A stretch of DNA of 64,000 nucleotides from Escherichia phage SHEFM2K, in sequence record PQ390715.1. One strand, written 5' to 3'. Positions within the stretch are counted from its first letter, which is position 1. Each line of letters opens with the position of its first letter. Shown here in pieces: positions 36,438 to 48,383 of this stretch. A program made the translations under genes and the position numbers. Below the pieces are notes generated by a model. It was not told the DNA's origin. It worked only from the letters and a program-made list of their open reading frames with translations, and ran no database searches.

Positions 36438-36768
36438 TATTTTAACCTCATTATAAAAATACTATAGTACTGTAATGCGACAATAATATTACTTGTTCTT
36501 ACTTTTTCCAATCCACATGATACCACATATTCATCCCCATATGTGCGAAACGATACACCATGAAAATTTTTATACACTTGCACTACTAATCATAACCTTT
36601 CGTCTAACCAACTGCATAGAATTATACTACTTTACGCAAATTGATCAAGTATTGATCAGATCATTTTTTGATCAATATTATACAGTTACATTTGTGCACC
36701 CTATGGGTTAGTGACGTTCTCGTCTTGATGTAAGTATTATGCCAGTACTTGATGATATTGTCAATAGT

Positions 36769-36966
36769 TTATTTTAATTTTTTTCTGTCATTGATTAATG
36801 CTTTCAGTACTATACTAATGATTTGCAATGATTCATCAATGACTATAAAATTATTCTCTTTCATTAGATGATAGTTACCATTGATTGTATATTCTAAGGA
36901 GTACTGTTTACGTTTAATTTTTGATAATGTTTCTATTTGTTTTTGTACTGATTTCATGCTAATCAT
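36769..36966 (-). CDS. hypothetical protein
   Basis: 65-aa ORF. Confidence 0.5.
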   Translation of the reverse strand: MISMKSVQKQIETLSKIKRKQYSLEYTINGNYHLMKENNFIVIDESLQIISIVLKALINDRKKLK

Positions 36967-37071
36967 TGTTAAACGTCCTGTAACGCATTCTAACGAGATA
37001 AACGGTTTAGTACTGGCATTGTATAGGGTAATGAATTAAAGCCCACCAGCGTTAACCAGTGGGCTATAATC

Positions 37072-37215
37072 TTACATCTTGCGGATAATCTTAACAGTAT
37101 CTTTCACCGATTTACCGTCTTGCTGGCATTGCTCGATCATTGCGTATTGTTCTGCTGTAAGATCCTCGCCAGTTTTTGCCAGTACTGCGTCGATGAATGA
37201 ATCCAGTGCGATCAT
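37072..37215 (-). CDS. small hypothetical protein (47 aa)
   Basis: below track cutoff; own TTGACA/TATAAT promoter upstream. Confidence 0.4.
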   Translation of the reverse strand: MIALDSFIDAVLAKTGEDLTAEQYAMIEQCQQDGKSVKDTVKIIRKM

Positions 37216-37314
37216 TTTGTTTCTCTCTTAGGTTAAGTTAACTACTGTTTATAAAACTTATTATACAGTACTATCAAACGTTGTCAATATCTTTAATAGT
37301 ACTGGTAATATATT

Positions 37315-37494
37315 TTAGCGGTAATCGTCGTATGCTTTATTCACCTGGCGAATGTAACTTTCAAAGGCTTCGTCTACCGTTTCATACTCCCGAACATAAT
37401 CACCATAGGAAACTACATACATACCTTTTTGATCTTCAAACGTCATGATGATAGAATCCAGACCAACGATTTCAGTTTTTGCGATGATAGCCAT
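37315..37494 (-). CDS. small hypothetical protein (59 aa)
   Basis: below track cutoff; promoter-hairpin unit upstream. Confidence 0.45.
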   Translation of the reverse strand: MAIIAKTEIVGLDSIIMTFEDQKGMYVVSYGDYVREYETVDEAFESYIRQVNKAYDDYR

Positions 37495-37577
37495 TTTTTA
37501 ATTCCTTAGTAGTGTAGTTGATAAAACTTATTATGCCAGTACTATCAATCATTGTCAATAGTACTGTGATAATATTT

Positions 37578-37790
37578 TTAGTTAATGATAGTCAGTGTAA
37601 AATTGTAATCCCCTGCCTGGTATAGTACTTTGTCGCCGAACGTACCAACACGTTTCATATTGCAATAGATACCCATAACACTTTTTACATCTTTGATATT
37701 CCGAACGCCTGTGATATCCTTGTTGAAATTTTCATGATCAGAAAATAAAACTTGTTTTGCATTTTTCAGTACAGTGCAGATATTAGCCAT
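37578..37790 (-). CDS. hypothetical protein
   Basis: 70-aa ORF. Confidence 0.6.
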   Translation of the reverse strand: MANICTVLKNAKQVLFSDHENFNKDITGVRNIKDVKSVMGIYCNMKRVGTFGDKVLYQAGDYNFTLTIIN

Positions 37791-37810
37791 TTTGTTTTCT
37801 CTTTGTTAGT

Positions 37811-45014: not shown

Positions 45015-45245
45015 TTATACTGCAATCGCGTCCAGGCTATAATAATAATAAGTGCCGTATTGGTGTACTTTATTACCTTTTATTTCAGTACTGAATGAAT
45101 CCGAACGGTTTGCATATGATGTTAATTTAAAGTACTTTGATTTGCTGATACGTTGCCATACACCGCAGATCCGCTGTAAGTAAGTAGTTTTATTAGTGGT
45201 AGTATCTTTTACGGTTTTAACTTCAGTCATATACATATTAGTCAT
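45015..45245 (-). CDS. hypothetical protein
   Basis: 76-aa ORF; GGAG SD. Confidence 0.55.
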   Translation of the reverse strand: MTNMYMTEVKTVKDTTTNKTTYLQRICGVWQRISKSKYFKLTSYANRSDSFSTEIKGNKVHQYGTYYYYSLDAIAV

Positions 45246-45332
45246 TTTTATTACTCCAGGTTATAGGCGGGAAGTGTTCCCGCTCTCGATGTAAAACATT
45301 ATACTCCATTAAACATAGTTTGCAAGTACTTT

Positions 45333-45599
45333 TTATTCAAGTACTGCAATCTTTTTAGTACTGTACACAGTAACGCGGTTGCCCTTGCGGTCGTGCTTTA
45401 TTTCTACCACTCGACGCGATACACTATCGGGACTTTTTAACGCCGCTAACCAGTACTGTAATGATCTGGCTGTACTACGCTTTACAATGGCCCAACGTTT
45501 ACCACGTTCCGATTGTACGCCCATATCTTTAAACGTTGCCCCGTCCTGGCGTGCGGCGATCCGAGCTTGTTCACGCGTCGCAAAATACTTAATATTCAT
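45333..45599 (-). CDS. hypothetical protein (paralog of 33279-33674)
   Basis: start at ATG 45599 (MNIKYFATRE). Confidence 0.65.
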   Translation of the reverse strand: MNIKYFATREQARIAARQDGATFKDMGVQSERGKRWAIVKRSTARSLQYWLAALKSPDSVSRRVVEIKHDRKGNRVTVYSTKKIAVLE

Positions 45600-45685
45600 G
45601 CTGTTGCCCTTATCGTTGGTGTATGAATAAAACACTATTATAAAGTACTATCGCAAAAAAATGATAGTACTTTAAATAAATTCTA

Positions 45686-45925
45686 TTACATTCCAACCAT
45701 TGCCGCACGGATCGCAGTAGTGCTATATTTGAATCCGTCCGGTGTTTTATCTTGTCCAGTCTGTTCTAAAAATAACATCATATGACGGGCCGCATCATTG
45801 CGATTAGTGCTATCGTTAATAAAGTCCTGGGCCAACCGGTATAATGATTCATCGTTATTAATCCAAAGGCTTACATTCCAATGAGTTTTGTTTTTGTGAC
45901 CTAAGAACATTTTTGATTTAGCCAT
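45686..45925 (-). CDS. hypothetical protein (paralog of 43645-43884)
   Basis: 79-aa ORF. Confidence 0.7.
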   Translation of the reverse strand: MAKSKMFLGHKNKTHWNVSLWINNDESLYRLAQDFINDSTNRNDAARHMMLFLEQTGQDKTPDGFKYSTTAIRAAMVGM

Positions 45926-46017
45926 TTTTTAATCCTCTTATATAGTGGGGAACTATTCCCCACCTGATAGAAAGTATTATACTTGTTTTAACTTAGTATG
46001 CAAGTACTTTATTAAAC

Positions 46018-46380
46018 TTATTCGTAAATTTTGCCACTGTCAGCCCATACCAGGAAACGAGGCATATTATCCCATGCATCTTGTTTTAAATTTAAACCGT
46101 GTAATACTTCTGTACTTTCCATTCCTGGTACTGGTTTACTATACACCGCGAACAATTCGCCCATGTACTGATAAGCCATCGTTAAATCACTGGCGATCAT
46201 CTTATGGATCATCGCATCAAGCATCACGGTTGCGGCGTATTGTTCACGCTTAAGCGGTAACATTGCAATAAGTTCCCGATAAGCTGAAATGTGAATCTTT
46301 ACCGTTTCAGCCGGAAGACCTTTCATCTCTTCACGGAAGTTAACCAGGTTAGCAATAATTTTAGTGATTTGAGTCGCCAT
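46018..46380 (-). CDS. hypothetical protein
   Basis: start at ATG 46380 (MATQITKI). Confidence 0.6.
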   Translation of the reverse strand: MATQITKIIANLVNFREEMKGLPAETVKIHISAYRELIAMLPLKREQYAATVMLDAMIHKMIASDLTMAYQYMGELFAVYSKPVPGMESTEVLHGLNLKQDAWDNMPRFLVWADSGKIYE

Positions 46381-46439
46381 CGTTTTAATCTCTCGTAATG
46401 TGTAGCAGGAAGTGTTCCCGCTCTCGATGTAAAACATTA

Positions 46440-48383
46440 TACGCTTTTTTCAGTACGGTGCAAGTACTTTCTACAAATACTTTTTAAAATAGTTTTCTTT
46501 CTATATAGGAGTACTATTATTCAGTACTATTATTCAGTACTATCATTCAGTACTGCAACCATCCAGGGGAACTATCTTTCTATATAGGGGAACTATCTTT
46601 CAGTACTGAATCAACCAAATCACTACTACACCCCATAAAACGGCCTCAGACGCATTCTAACGCATTAATACACCTAAGCTATACATTTGCACCATTCCAA
46701 TCATTCCAGGGCTTTACGGGCCGTTTAAACGCGTTAAATTATTTTCAATTATTTTGTTTTTAGGTATTGACTTGATCCTGAAAAAGCGTATAATTACTAC
46801 ATAGACGCGAGAAAGCGGAAACCCCAGAGGGTGCGGAATTACGCCCAAAATTCAAGATATAAAAAAAGGATACACTCCCGCACCCTAGCAGGTAAACGCA
46901 CTTTCTCAGTACTGAAATATAGTACCATAGTCCGGCCCAGGATGGCAAGCAAATTAATTAAAACTTTTTTCATCCAGGGTATTGCTTTATTTTTCCAGTA
47001 CTGTATAATAGTTCCATCAAGTCGAGAAAGACTCAAGCCCACCGGGTGCATAGTTACGCCCAAAATTCAGTACTGAAAAAATTTTTAAAAATATCCGGCC
47101 AGGTCGTTGACATTGCCCCCAGTTTATAAGATAATGATTCCAGATTCAGAAAAATCTAACTACAGATACTGCGGGGAAACTATCCCCACGCGGTAGGGGA
47201 ACTATTGGAAAAACAAAATAAAATTTTGATTTAGCCGTCTATACTTCCAGCCATCCAGAAATCTAGCCGTTTAGCCGTCTAGATGGATAGCCATCTTTAC
47301 TTCCAGACTTCTGGAGGGCTAGACATATCTACGTCCAAAATCCATCCAGGGTAACTACACCCAAAATCCGTCAGTACTATACCATAGATCTATCTTTTGA
47401 AAGGGAGTATTCAGTACTGCCATCATAGCCCTCACTATGTTACCCTAGGAGGATGAAGACTATCATGTAGTACTGAATACTGTTAGAGGGAATCCACCAG
47501 CTTGTGCTGGTGGCATAATGCTTTAGATTAAAATCAGTACTGACACCATTCTGTTAATATCAGTACTGTTATTACAATTTTCATATGAGGTTCAAAAAGA
47601 TGTACCACCACAGGAGGAACTATCTTTTCTGTACTGTCTCACGACAGGAGGTAGAGTAAATGAATTGTTCGCAGCAACTCATCTCTCTATGTAGAACATT
47701 ATACAGTACTGAATCATAATGTCAATAACTTTCTTTCACCATTCAGTACTGATATTCTTGAGAACTACCCGTCTACAAACATCATTATATCCCACAAATC
47801 ATAAACGTCCCAACGTAAATTTCAACTTTCGAAGATCCAACTTTTATTTCATAGGTACTCCAAAATTTTTAGGATCGAGATTTAGGATGGAGTACTAACC
47901 AACTTTTTGCTGGAGCCTCAAGGGGTAATTGAATTTTACCCCGAAGGGTAAAAGGGTAATTGTAATTAAGGTGAAAGTAATAATTCAGTACTAATCATTG
48001 CGTGATTACTTTTGATTACATTTGATGTAATTTGCAAAATGGAAAAGGAGCTTGGAAACTACAAAGTACGGCAGACTTCCTCTGCCTACTTAGTGGCATA
48101 TCGACACCTTCAGTACTGAATACTTTTGGGGCAGTACTGAATCCTTCCCTAGCATTCTTGAGTAATCTTGTCTATAATAATCAGTACTGAATCATATATA
48201 ATCATTCTGTGATTCTACGGTGCTCATATAAATGTTTATATATGATTACTTATGACTACCTATGATTACGGGGTTTAGCCTGGGGAGAATCCTAGTGATC
48301 GCATTTGTCCAGGCTGAATTTTAACAATTCGCCTGTACATAAAGGTTGTTCACTAGGAGCTTCCCCTGTCTCTATGTGTTTAA
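46440..48383. repeat. ORF-free iteron-rich region (candidate replication origin or control region)
   Basis: no convincing ORF; tandem agtactattattc x3 (46511-46549), ggggaactatctttc x2, tagccgtct and ccatccag repeats (47230-47350), gggtaattg repeats (47925-47960), many CAGTACTG palindromes. Confidence 0.45.
46767..46794 (+). promoter_or_regulatory. plus-strand sigma70-like promoter
   Basis: TTGACT N16 TATAAT, followed by non-coding sequence with GGGTGC/GCACCC motifs. Confidence 0.35.

Follow-up and report, generated by a model that had tools for sequence, protein, structure and literature searches.

What is the role of strong promoters that are followed by no gene? This question is raised by a 64,000-nt stretch of Escherichia phage SHEFM2K (PQ390715.1; hereafter the window), an Asteriusvirus-like (Rak2-like) jumbo coliphage, in which the first-pass annotation had noted four such promoters and proposed four or five related loci encoding small RNAs or acting as decoy or titration sites. 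All four promoters were confirmed, at 42866-42894 (+), 44812-44840 (+), 46767-46794 (+) and 36764-36736 (-); the first two and the last read TTGACA-N17-CATAAT, and the last had been placed at 36730-36760. None of them is followed by a Shine-Dalgarno sequence and an ORF, and all are followed by related sequence with CCCAYMGGGTGC. The family is larger than proposed, with 11 members in the window (10 full copies and one degenerate) spanning 29.7-47.1 kb. At up to two mismatches, the 12-mer CCCAYMGGGTGC occurs 12 times in the window compared with 0.49 expected, a count in which one palindromic site, an unrelated terminator, was scored on each strand. Scanning the 64 kb with a covariance model trained on copies of other phages gave 10 full units at E <= 5e-4 plus one partial unit, and no convincing further match in the rest of the window. 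Chance is excluded as the source of these motif and covariance-model matches.

Each unit consists of a near-consensus sigma-70 promoter and a module of about 48 nt, located 2-6 nt past the transcription start, both promoter and start being predicted by consensus. The promoters are of the strong sigma-70 type, in most with 17-nt spacing and an extended -10 TG; four have the -35 box inside the terminator hairpin of the preceding gene, and the -10 box and the 12-mer are separated by 21 to 30 nt, depending on the copy. Every real copy of the motif has a promoter at the right distance, and the matches without a promoter were all in unrelated contigs. The common transcript start CATCAAGACG proposed earlier applies to the units at 42866 and 36764 only, and the other units start with CATTGAG, CATTGGC, CATAGAC or CATGACA. 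The proposal that the loci are paralogous non-coding units, each driven by a promoter, is supported over a reading as gene leaders.

Unit 1 (29694-29777, -; 39.3 bits, E 3e-7) has its -35 box TTGACT at 29770-29765 within a terminator-like hairpin (29777-29750), its -10 box TATTAT at 29747-29742 and its RNA module at 29736-29694, with a Chi site (29662-29655) and then a gene promoter (29629) downstream. Unit 2 (31950-32038, -; 59.1 bits, E 8e-12) has TTGATT at 32031-32026 within a hairpin (32038-32011), TATTAT at 32008-32003 and a module at 31997-31950 with H1 stem UGAG/CUCA (H1, the 5' hairpin, is described below), followed by an ordinary gene promoter and gene 31605-31904. Unit 3 (34675-34758, -; 36.4 bits), with TTGACT at 34751 in hairpin 34758-34731 and TATTAT at 34728-34723, carries a short module (34717-34675) whose 5' segment is A-rich and shows no clear H1, and a Chi site lies downstream at 34670-34663. 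Unit 4 (36681-36764, -; 33.4 bits) belongs to the confirmed promoter at 36764-36736, which has an extended -10 TG, and has a module at 36728-36681 with H1 GACG/CGUC. Unit 5 (38346-38434, -; 50.8 bits), with TTGACT at 38427 in hairpin 38434-38407, TATTAT at 38404-38399 and a module at 38393-38346, precedes a gene promoter (38305) and gene 37885-38289, a synteny conserved in 121Q and RaK2. Unit 6 (42866-43008, +; 37.8 bits) has its predicted start at about 42901, a module at 42902-42949, AGTACT at 42959-42964, and a bidirectional terminator hairpin at 42975-42994 with a U-rich tail. Unit 7 (44812-44888, +; 25.4 bits, E 5e-4), with a short module lacking H1 (44852-44888), and unit 8 (44904-44984, -; 49.3 bits), with promoter TTGACT-N17-CATAAT at 44984-44956 and a module at 44950-44904 with H1 UGGC/GCCG, form a convergent pair with their 12-mers 45 nt apart. 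Unit 9 (46767-46849, +; 30.6 bits), with promoter TTGACT-N16-TATAAT, has a module at 46802-46849 with H1 CGC/GCG, the 12-mer variant CCCAGAGGGTGC and the 3' arm ACGCCC, and converges with the degenerate unit 10 (46867-46948, -; partial, 16.1 bits, E 0.07), which has a promoter-like TTGCCA-N18-TACTAT at 46948-46919 and the motif CCTGCTAGGGTGC; the GGGUGC/GUAUCC hairpin of unit 10 (46886-46867) looks like a terminator because seven T follow it. Unit 11 (46982-47064, +; 45.2 bits), with promoter TTGCTT-N16-TATAAT at 46982-47009 and a module at 47017-47064 with H1 AGUC/GACU, is directed at the genome end, and another promoter lies downstream at 47107 (+).

Three contexts recurred among the units: before an ordinary gene promoter, before a bidirectional terminator, and in convergent pairs with fixed spacing. 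Five window units are on the coding strand, four with an ordinary gene promoter within about 55-70 nt downstream and the fifth (36764) with a weaker promoter-like site about 30 nt downstream, while four units are arranged as convergent pairs. A discrete small RNA of about 105 nt had been proposed for the 42866 unit, and the layout of this unit fits; the same order of module, AGTACT, A-rich stretch and terminator recurs in several other genera. However, a terminator belonging to the unit itself is present in only two of the 11 in the window, and a free small RNA as the uniform product of the family is therefore not supported. The proposed antisense overlap with the end of gene 43000-43251 (-) is negligible, since the hairpin at 42975-42994 also terminates that gene and limits the overlap with the ORF to 8 nt at most. 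Among phage small RNAs, lambda PR' 6S RNA and oop RNA each arise from a constitutive promoter that has a terminator close by, and unit 6 and its counterparts in other genera resemble them, with a strong promoter leading into some 100 nt of non-coding RNA and an intrinsic terminator; in contrast, the units have no sequence or Rfam relationship to 6S or oop, form a multi-copy paralogous family, and mostly lack a terminator of their own.

The module is 42-52 nt long and begins either with H1, a variable 5' hairpin whose loop is A-rich, or with an unpaired A-rich segment, followed by a YWRR linker, an almost invariant 4-bp mini-hairpin (R-CCC-AYA-GGG-U, loop of 3-4 nt), GC, a purine-rich stretch and GYRYCY. 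Across about 90 copies from at least five genera, the 12-mer shows essentially no variation, whereas flanking positions take all four bases. H1 is missing from about 15-20% of copies; about 20 different stem sequences occupy this one position, and the loops are A-rich and GNRA-like (e.g., GAGAAA and GCGAAA). In 67 distinct copies all four H1 pairs vary on both sides, one pair being AU in 18, CG in 17, GC in 14, UA in 3 and unpaired in 2. Compensatory cells numbered 98, compared with 35 +/- 5 in shuffles and 11-23 with the partner slid, counts that overstate the independent events, given that the 72 aligned copies had been fitted to the model and that many of them are related by descent. The 5' segment folds at -2.7 kcal/mol versus -0.8 for shuffles (z = -15). 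Pairing maintained over about 20 stem sequences indicates selection on RNA structure, and the G.U pairs in H1 make this structure strand-specific. RNAalifold independently predicted both H1 and the CCC/GGG hairpin, and a common conserved RNA fold of the loci is thus supported by alignment and folding.

The CCC/GGG hairpin is supported more weakly than H1. It is 98.9% paired, with a closing G.U pair in 34 copies and A-U in 30, and its stem is conserved while the loop varies in sequence and length and tolerates insertions. A joint C-to-U and G-to-A change was seen by eye in two copies, CCUACAAGG and CCUUAUAAGG; the pair count gives one U-A because the second copy was aligned differently. An alternative hairpin, H3, in which GYRYCY pairs with GGGUGC, is mutually exclusive with the CCC/GGG hairpin; both are weak, their energies are almost equal (difference 0.8 +/- 3.1 kcal/mol), and H3 shows one-sided variation only.

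All units are enclosed by an inferred direct terminal repeat at 28290-48090, whose boundaries were transferred by homology from the depositor-annotated repeat of vB_Ec-M-J: the physical genome end of that phage (record position 1) corresponds to window position 48090 and the inner edge of its repeat (21525) to about 28290. The roughly 90 copies come from Rak2-like phages of Escherichia, Klebsiella, Cronobacter and Pectobacterium and from metagenomic Rak2-like phages, and are confined in each genome to a single stretch of at most 20 kb, as are all exact-pattern matches in eight complete genomes; where genome ends are mapped, this stretch is the direct terminal repeat. In vB_Ec-M-J, of which the repeats and 81 kb outside them, but not the central 254 kb, were scanned with the model, 20 of 20 matches fell inside the two repeat copies and none in the 81 kb; the window likewise gave no match in the 44 kb that lie beyond its repeat. 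The repeat also contains about 45 strong host-type promoters and genes of host-takeover type, encoding a DksA/TraR-like zinc-finger protein, a GNAT acetyltransferase and a kinase-like protein.

How might the units work? We give a probability of about 0.5 to the reading, drawn from sequence, that host RNA polymerase makes the 5'-terminal modules right after DNA entry and that they act via their RNA structure, probably by binding a protein. Each unit would be a self-contained cassette from which a structured, non-coding RNA module is transcribed as a 5' terminus; this independence is indicated by the units' use of both strands, the unrelated gene families downstream (a search for a common downstream gene found none) and a layout recurring in several genera. 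Host RNA polymerase would fire the promoters once the repeat enters the cell, on about 20 template copies per genome, and the fold may serve as a generic, context-independent handle for a protein, either a host factor being sequestered or a phage regulator. Where a terminator lies downstream, the product would be a free small RNA about 100 nt long; where none is close, the module would form the 5' end of a longer RNA.

An unlikely alternative is that the nascent module loads onto its own polymerase, with or without a phage protein, as do the antitermination RNAs lambda nut (boxA/boxB) and HK022 put, so that the modified polymerase resists termination and could cross the many terminators of the repeat. 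The units resemble nut and put in their obligatory promoter-proximal position, two small stem-loops, A-rich GNRA-like H1 loops and terminator-rich early surroundings, and five window units are co-directional with genes, four of them directly downstream of a terminator; units with a terminator ahead of them would be natural substrates for read-through. However, five of the 11 units, or about half, among them 42866 (+), 44812 (+), 46767 (+), 46982 (+) and the inward partners of the pairs, oppose genes or each other and would yield only antisense RNA by read-through; moreover, inspection by eye revealed no boxA-like consensus, most genes already have their own promoter, and no N-like protein was identified.

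Quite unlikely, in our estimate, are empty or degenerate mobile cassettes, with the units serving mainly for recombination and shuffling or as spare promoters, and with the sequence after them hitch-hiking rather than forming a functional RNA. Promoter-early stem-loops (PeSLs) are composite terminator/promoter cassettes of T4-type phages, defined by promoter and terminator stem-loop and found upstream of protein genes (Arbiol et al. 2010, PMC2839356; Comeau et al. 2014, PMC4122927). The units share with PeSLs near-consensus sigma-70 early promoters, many repeats, a region made up of small ORFan genes and cassette behaviour; four window units have the A-run/G-run hairpin fused to the promoter (A3-4 G3, loop, C3 T3-4; PMC4122927), the same promoter type and AUCAAGAC start also precede ordinary genes at 40406 and 37558, and H1 was exchanged wholesale between the window phage and 121Q at an orthologous site. 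Unlike PeSLs, the units lead into a conserved RNA module and not into a ribosome-binding site with an ORF, and they belong to another group of phages, in which only the terminal repeat carries them. The near-invariant 12-mer amid freely varying flanks, the compensated H1 and the CCC/GGG stem conserved despite loop insertions argue for purifying selection on structure, not decay.

We consider it improbable that the element acts as DNA, with CCCAYAGGGTGC as an operator, roadblock or titration site, or with the promoter and a G-rich transcript serving replication priming or end processing. The strict restriction to the terminal repeat, the constant 45 or 63 nt of convergent pairs, which in both the window phage and phage CBB lie at distances of about 1 kb and 3-4 kb from the left end, a Fur-box-like palindrome within the 63-nt pairs of other genera, and several + strand promoters directed at the physical end are consistent with such a role. 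However, strand-specific H1 covariation including G.U pairs makes no sense for duplex DNA, the -10-to-12-mer distance and the CCC/GGG loop length are not constant, and an origin needs neither about 10 copies nor a conserved 5' hairpin. The earlier proposal of decoy or titration sites thus fits poorly at the DNA level, and a decoy at the RNA level is possible.

A ligand- or factor-controlled attenuator, in which the exclusive CCC/GGG and GGGUGC/GYRYCY hairpins toggle transcription or processing, seems very doubtful. Both states use GGGU, H3 being lower in energy in 37 copies and CCC/GGG in 30; the 3' arm of H3 is 91% paired with only pairing-preserving variation (Y opposite G, R opposite U), and H3 plus a T run resembles a terminator in unit 10 and a few units of other genera. 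However, most units lack the U tract after H3, transition bias could explain the one-sided variation, and neither a common downstream target gene nor an Rfam riboswitch match was found. Translated micro-ORFs beginning inside the module have almost no credibility: the 44812 unit has ATGACAACAGCTAACCCACCGGGTGCACAATTGTAA, an 11-codon ORF, but it has no Shine-Dalgarno sequence, most copies lack the ATG, module length differences are not multiples of 3, paralogues have in-frame stops (e.g., ATGAAAACAAGCTAA), and no conserved micro-ORF was found in the module.

As regards non-coding RNAs made early in infection, the distantly related jumbo phage PA5oct, which is related to the Rak2-like group, has highly expressed non-coding RNAs in its long terminal repeat, of 236 and 451 nt, defined by RNA-seq, with no known promoter and abundant from early infection (PMC7318152). 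The units are likewise non-coding and terminal-repeat-encoded in a jumbo phage, although a scan of the 39-kb PA5oct repeat with the module model gave no match (best E 2.1). Searches for the module gave no matching family in Rfam and no E. coli homologue. In the absence of an RNA-database match, the module looks like an undescribed RNA family produced at the start of infection.

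The region 42500-47200 of the window was 96% identical to phAPEC6, with similar matches in many Escherichia and Salmonella phages of ~350 kb, and the window derives from an Asteriusvirus-like (Rak2-like) jumbo coliphage. All neighbouring genes in phAPEC6 are labelled 'hypothetical', and the units described below are unannotated there. We found the promoters reported in the first-pass annotation, TTGACA-N17-CATAAT at 42866-42894(+), 44812-44840(+) and 36764-36736(-) and TTGACT-N16-TATAAT at 46767-46794(+), and none of the four was followed by a ribosome-binding site and ORF, each leading into sequence containing CCCAYMGGGTGC. 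The near-invariant 12-mer CCCAYAGGGUGC, the core of an RNA module that follows these promoters, had 12 occurrences in the window with up to 2 mismatches allowed, where 0.49 would be expected; a palindrome that counts once on either strand belongs to an unrelated terminator. R1, a covariance model of the module, was built from the seed alignment A1 (ten equal-length copies, nine from loci of other phages and one window copy, 47017-47064) and run without filters over the whole window, where it identified 10 full units of promoter plus module (E 8e-12 to 5e-4), at 29694-29736, 31950-31997, 34675-34717, 36681-36728, 38346-38393 and 44904-44950 on the minus strand and at 42902-42949, 44852-44888, 46802-46849 and 47017-47064 on the plus strand, together with one degenerate copy (unit 10, 46868-46887, minus), and nothing convincing across the rest of the 64 kb. 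Therefore, the family in the window has 11 members; the first-pass annotation was right about a family of related loci but not about its size, put at four or five, and the start 'CATCAAGACG' that it gave to the transcripts was present in two units and not in the others.

The promoters of 9/11 units matched the sigma-70 consensus at 10-11 of 12 positions, the other two, TTGCCA-N18-TACTAT at 46948(-) and TTGATT-N17-TATTAT at 32031(-), matched at 9/12 each, and an extended -10 TG was present in 7/11 units. Nearly all unit promoters had TTGACA or TTGACT, 17-nt spacing and a -10 box of CATAAT, TATTAT or TATAAT, and the neighbouring ordinary genes mostly had TTGCAA or TTGACA, 16-nt spacing and TATAAT. 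The predicted transcription start is the A of 'CAT', ~7 nt past the -10 box, and the module begins 2-6 nt further on. It opens with H1, a variable hairpin of 3-5 bp with the loop GAGAAA, GCGAAA, AGAUAA or AGAACAA, which is replaced by an unpaired A-rich stretch in ~15-20% of copies, and continues with a YWRR linker (for example CUAA, CUAG, CAAG or UUGA), CCCAYAGGGUGC, a 6-nt, largely purine stretch with a final U, GYRYCY (for example GUAUCU, CCGUCU or ACGCCC) and an AU-rich tail, to a length of ~48 nt in an alignment of 72 copies.

Comparison loci were taken from exact-pattern scans of IMG/VR, which led to genomes of ~345-378 kb, and blastn hits agree with 121Q, RaK2, GAP32 and CBB, besides metagenomic relatives; R1 retrieved 72 copies, 67 of them distinct, from 17 sources and 26 more from further loci. 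Alignment and folding of the loci, a check proposed in the first-pass annotation, revealed a conserved, partly covarying RNA fold, in which the covariation of H1 is well supported and the CCC/GGG hairpin is conserved. Both sides of H1 changed in 4/4 pairs (one pair being AU in 18 copies, CG in 17, GC in 14, UA in 3 and unpaired in 2), ~20 distinct stem sequences were present at the same place, compensatory cells numbered 98, where shuffling gave 35 +/- 5 and a slid partner 11-23, and the 5' segments folded better than shuffles (z = -15); the alignment is model-fitted and its copies are related by descent. Since G.U pairs are present, the structure of H1 is strand-specific. RNAalifold on the R1-fitted alignment predicted H1 and a 4-bp R-CCC/GGG-U mini-hairpin, which was 98.9% paired, and was closed by G.U in 34 copies and by A-U in 30; two variants (CCUACAAGG, CCUUAUAAGG), read in the alignment, change both sides with pairing kept, and the pair count scores only one of them as U-A because the other was aligned differently. 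The loop of this hairpin varied in length and sequence (ACA, AUA, ACC, AGA, AUU, UAUA, UCAA, UUUA). H3, the alternative hairpin of GGGUGC with GYRYCY, was 91% paired and varied on one side only, both 3' helices being weak. A pseudoknot joining the H1 loop to the 3' arm and a closing stem of 5' CAUAG with 3' CUAU were present in some classes, and both were dropped because neither covaries across classes.

There was no tRNA or tmRNA in the window, no Rfam 15 covariance model reached its gathering score anywhere in the 64 kb, and at E <= 10 the region 42800-47200 gave only noise; blastn with one unit as query found no match among 5,426 E. coli genomes. Kinship with the repeat-encoded RNAs of PA5oct was ruled out by the lack of an R1 match, and a leader of one protein family by downstream ORFs that are mutually unrelated. 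The literature searched on RaK2, CBB, phAPEC6, PA5oct and promoter-early stem-loop (PeSL) cassettes mentions neither the 12-mer nor such RNAs, and it yielded no RNA-seq data for the Rak2-like group. GGA in hairpin loops is the hallmark of a CsrA sponge, and repeated A-R-N triplets with a U-tailed terminator that of an Hfq sponge; in the module, one GGA lies between GGGUGC and GYRYCY in ~60% of copies and A-rich 5' segments occur (AGAACAA, AGAUAA, GAGAAA), neither being universal.

A 196-nt query over units 7 and 8 matched 55 Rak2-like phage records (Escherichia 32, Klebsiella 10, Salmonella 8, Cronobacter 2, Pectobacterium 2, Erwinia 1), and in records with mapped ends the match lay under 'Direct Terminal Repeats', 'terminal repeat region predicted by PhageTerm' or 'redundant repeat'. 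The repeat of vB_Ec-M-J comprises record positions 1-21525; position 1 corresponds to window 48090 and the inner edge to window ~28290, which places all window units inside the inferred repeat and leaves the other 44 kb free of them. In vB_Ec-M-J itself R1, run on both repeats and 81 kb of adjoining unique DNA (the genome short of its central 254 kb), gave 10 units in each repeat, the two sets being identical, and none in the unique part, and in eight complete genomes all exact-pattern matches fell within one stretch of at most 20 kb per genome. The units are confined to the terminal repeat, with ~10 copies per repeat, and the RNA family is conserved over at least five host genera. Outside Rak2-like phages, 16-mer pattern matches in small viral contigs were chance matches without an R1 match, and promoter-less motif matches were ruled out as members, being unrelated. 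The genes of the repeat are almost all annotated 'hypothetical'; a DksA/TraR-type zinc-finger protein, a GNAT acetyltransferase and a weakly kinase-like protein are encoded there, and these fit an immediate-early host-takeover region. The repeat-encoded 213-aa protein at 32050-32691(-), with a weak, sub-threshold Pfam Pkinase match (E 0.003), recalls the T7 early kinase, and five GATC sites in ~50 nt (tgatcaagtattgatcagatcattttttgatcaa, 36640-36690) closely follow unit 4 and precede the DksA/TraR-like gene 36180-36437(-).

Other repeated elements were observed near the units. Chi (GCTGGTGG) had 11 copies in the window against ~0.2 expected per strand (29655, 29878, 31456, 32863, 34663, 35581, 37043, 41032 and 47494, minus; 47506 and 53507, plus); 10/11 were in the inferred terminal repeat, 9 of those on one strand, in the orientation that RecBCD would read on entry at the right genome end, and the copy at 47506(+), 0.6 kb from the left end, forms the inverted pair CCACCAGC-TTGT-GCTGGTGG with that at 47494. 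Chi was also seen inside unit promoter spacers in other genera. The palindrome AGTACT occurred 274 times against 21.6 expected (12.7-fold) and CAGTACTG 64 times; AGTACT was dense at 28-52 kb, with none in the 16-20 kb and 24-28 kb bins, and its sites lay in promoter spacers, beside -35 boxes, after RNA modules and all through the non-coding end region. The palindrome may thus be a motif for binding or modification, and the two AGTACT-free 4-kb bins may be foreign insertions. At least 16 ordinary early-gene cassettes at 29185-45303(-) form a second leader family in the repeat, of one design (TATAAT, ACAUCRAG, an 8-bp GGGGAGAA/UUCUCCCC hairpin with a 3-5-nt loop, ribosome-binding site, ATG), and a third leader type at 34590, 41770 and 44735 (-), beginning ACAUCAGGACGGGGAACGAAAUAAGUAAC...CCCCGUUAAGUAG.CCAGGAGUAAG, is a long structured 5' UTR common to at least three genes. 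The ~1.9-kb non-coding stretch 46440-48400, which includes the mapped physical genome end (~48090), was crowded with CAGTACTG-based direct and inverted repeats, 13-nt tandem repeats at 46508-46560, GGGGAACTATC repeats, and ACGYCCAAAAT repeats at 46837, 47052, 47326 and 47353, and three plus-strand promoters (46767, 46982, 47107) are directed at the genome end. Further along, at least eight paralogous genes (358-433 aa) stand in tandem at 53291-62984(+), an array which in phAPEC6 and vB_Ec-M-J has 14 members, annotated RCC1-like 'regulator of chromosome condensation'.

We propose, with a probability of about 0.5, that the modules are host-made RNAs of the start of infection: host polymerase would transcribe them at the very start, the fold would serve as a generic handle for a protein partner, and a terminated module would act as a free RNA and the others as a 5' end. 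An own promoter with an intrinsic terminator within ~150 nt was found in unit 6, the degenerate unit 10 (seven T after H3, terminator-like) and ~9 units of other genera, and no such terminator was found within ~150 nt in the other 9 window units. Three contexts were seen. In context A (units 1, 2, 3 and 5) an ordinary gene promoter follows at ~+55 on the same strand; unit 4 is on the coding strand too, with only a weaker promoter-like site downstream (36648). Context B is that of unit 6 and recurs in at least four genera: after the unit come AGTACT, an A-rich stretch and a bidirectional terminator shared with a convergent gene, a layout that agrees with the ~105-nt terminated RNA first suggested for this locus. 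The antisense overlap of this predicted RNA with ORF 43000-43251 is at most 8 nt. In context C (units 7/8 and 9/10) convergent pairs have exactly 45 or 63 nt between their 12-mers; in other Rak2-like genera a Fur-box-like palindrome lies midway between convergent units of the 63-nt class, with near-perfect cores AATGATWATCATT within GCGAATGATAATCATTCGC (loci L002, 2825-2837 and 8083-8095; L006, 915-927 and 961-973; L020, 3123-3135; L025, 6094-6106), and the window's units have no Fur box. The units are independent of orientation and of the neighbouring gene, and the pairing of promoter and module is obligate. A put-like RNA has a two-stem structure of about 70 nt; we consider it unlikely that the module is a nut- or put-like antitermination RNA, as 5/11 units face against genes or toward a partner unit and inspection of the 72-copy alignment gave no boxA-like consensus (CGCUCUUA or UGCUCUUUAACAA) and no put-like two-stem structure.

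The promoter half of the unit is of a known kind, that of PeSL-like early cassettes, and a composite terminator/promoter layout is known from the PeSL cassettes of T4-type phages (PMC4122927). Units 1, 2, 3 and 5 have this layout, their -35 box being inside a 12-bp terminator-like hairpin, AAAGGGATTGAC-TCCG-GTCAGTCCCTTT (29777-29750, 32038-32011, 34758-34731 and 38434-38407), which is absent from the other 7/11; a near-consensus sigma-70 early promoter is common to PeSLs and the units. A small protein gene comes directly after a PeSL, whereas the window units are followed by the RNA module without a ribosome-binding site or ORF; both are present in the ordinary gene cassettes of that region. 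PeSLs lie at indel or recombination junctions of closely related phages; for the units there is a single case, the orthologous unit of 121Q, in which H1 was swapped relative to this phage. That the units are PeSL-type shuffling cassettes devoid of RNA function is distinctly improbable, weakened by the invariance and covariation of the module. The RNA module, its conservation across several genera and its restriction to the terminal repeat appear undescribed so far.

A function at the DNA level, at an origin or a genome end, has poor odds in view of strand-specific covariation and variable spacing. Likewise, the earlier idea of a decoy or titration site acting as duplex DNA fits poorly, since the distance from the -10 box to the 12-mer is not fixed (21-30 nt) and H1 covaries with G.U pairs. 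An attenuator in which the CCC/GGG hairpin competes with H3 has a slim chance; the two are mutually exclusive and nearly iso-energetic (0.8 +/- 3.1 kcal/mol). Micro-ORFs can be dismissed, as the ATG is unconserved, the modules differ in length by amounts not divisible by three and stop codons lie in frame in paralogues.

Beyond the reading of the modules as host-made RNAs that offer a protein handle, it is conceivable but doubtful that Rak2-like jumbo phages carry an RNA-only immediate-early device that floods the cell with one folded handle. Such a device would have ~20 templates per genome in the first-entering DNA, each with a top-strength host promoter, and the handle would either tie up an RNA-binding or defence factor of the host or, needing no phage protein, reprogram its RNA polymerase, with the competing CCC/GGG and GGGUGC/GYRYCY hairpins as a possible switch. 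To our knowledge, host takeover early in jumbo-phage infection is almost unexplored, and a covariation-supported RNA family, which accompanies the strongest host-type promoters and is missing both from Rfam and from the RaK2, CBB, phAPEC6 and PA5oct literature searched, provides a concrete, testable handle on it. Further, the 'gene-less' strong promoters of phage terminal repeats may be RNA genes, and the phage annotation pipelines now in use leave them unlabelled.
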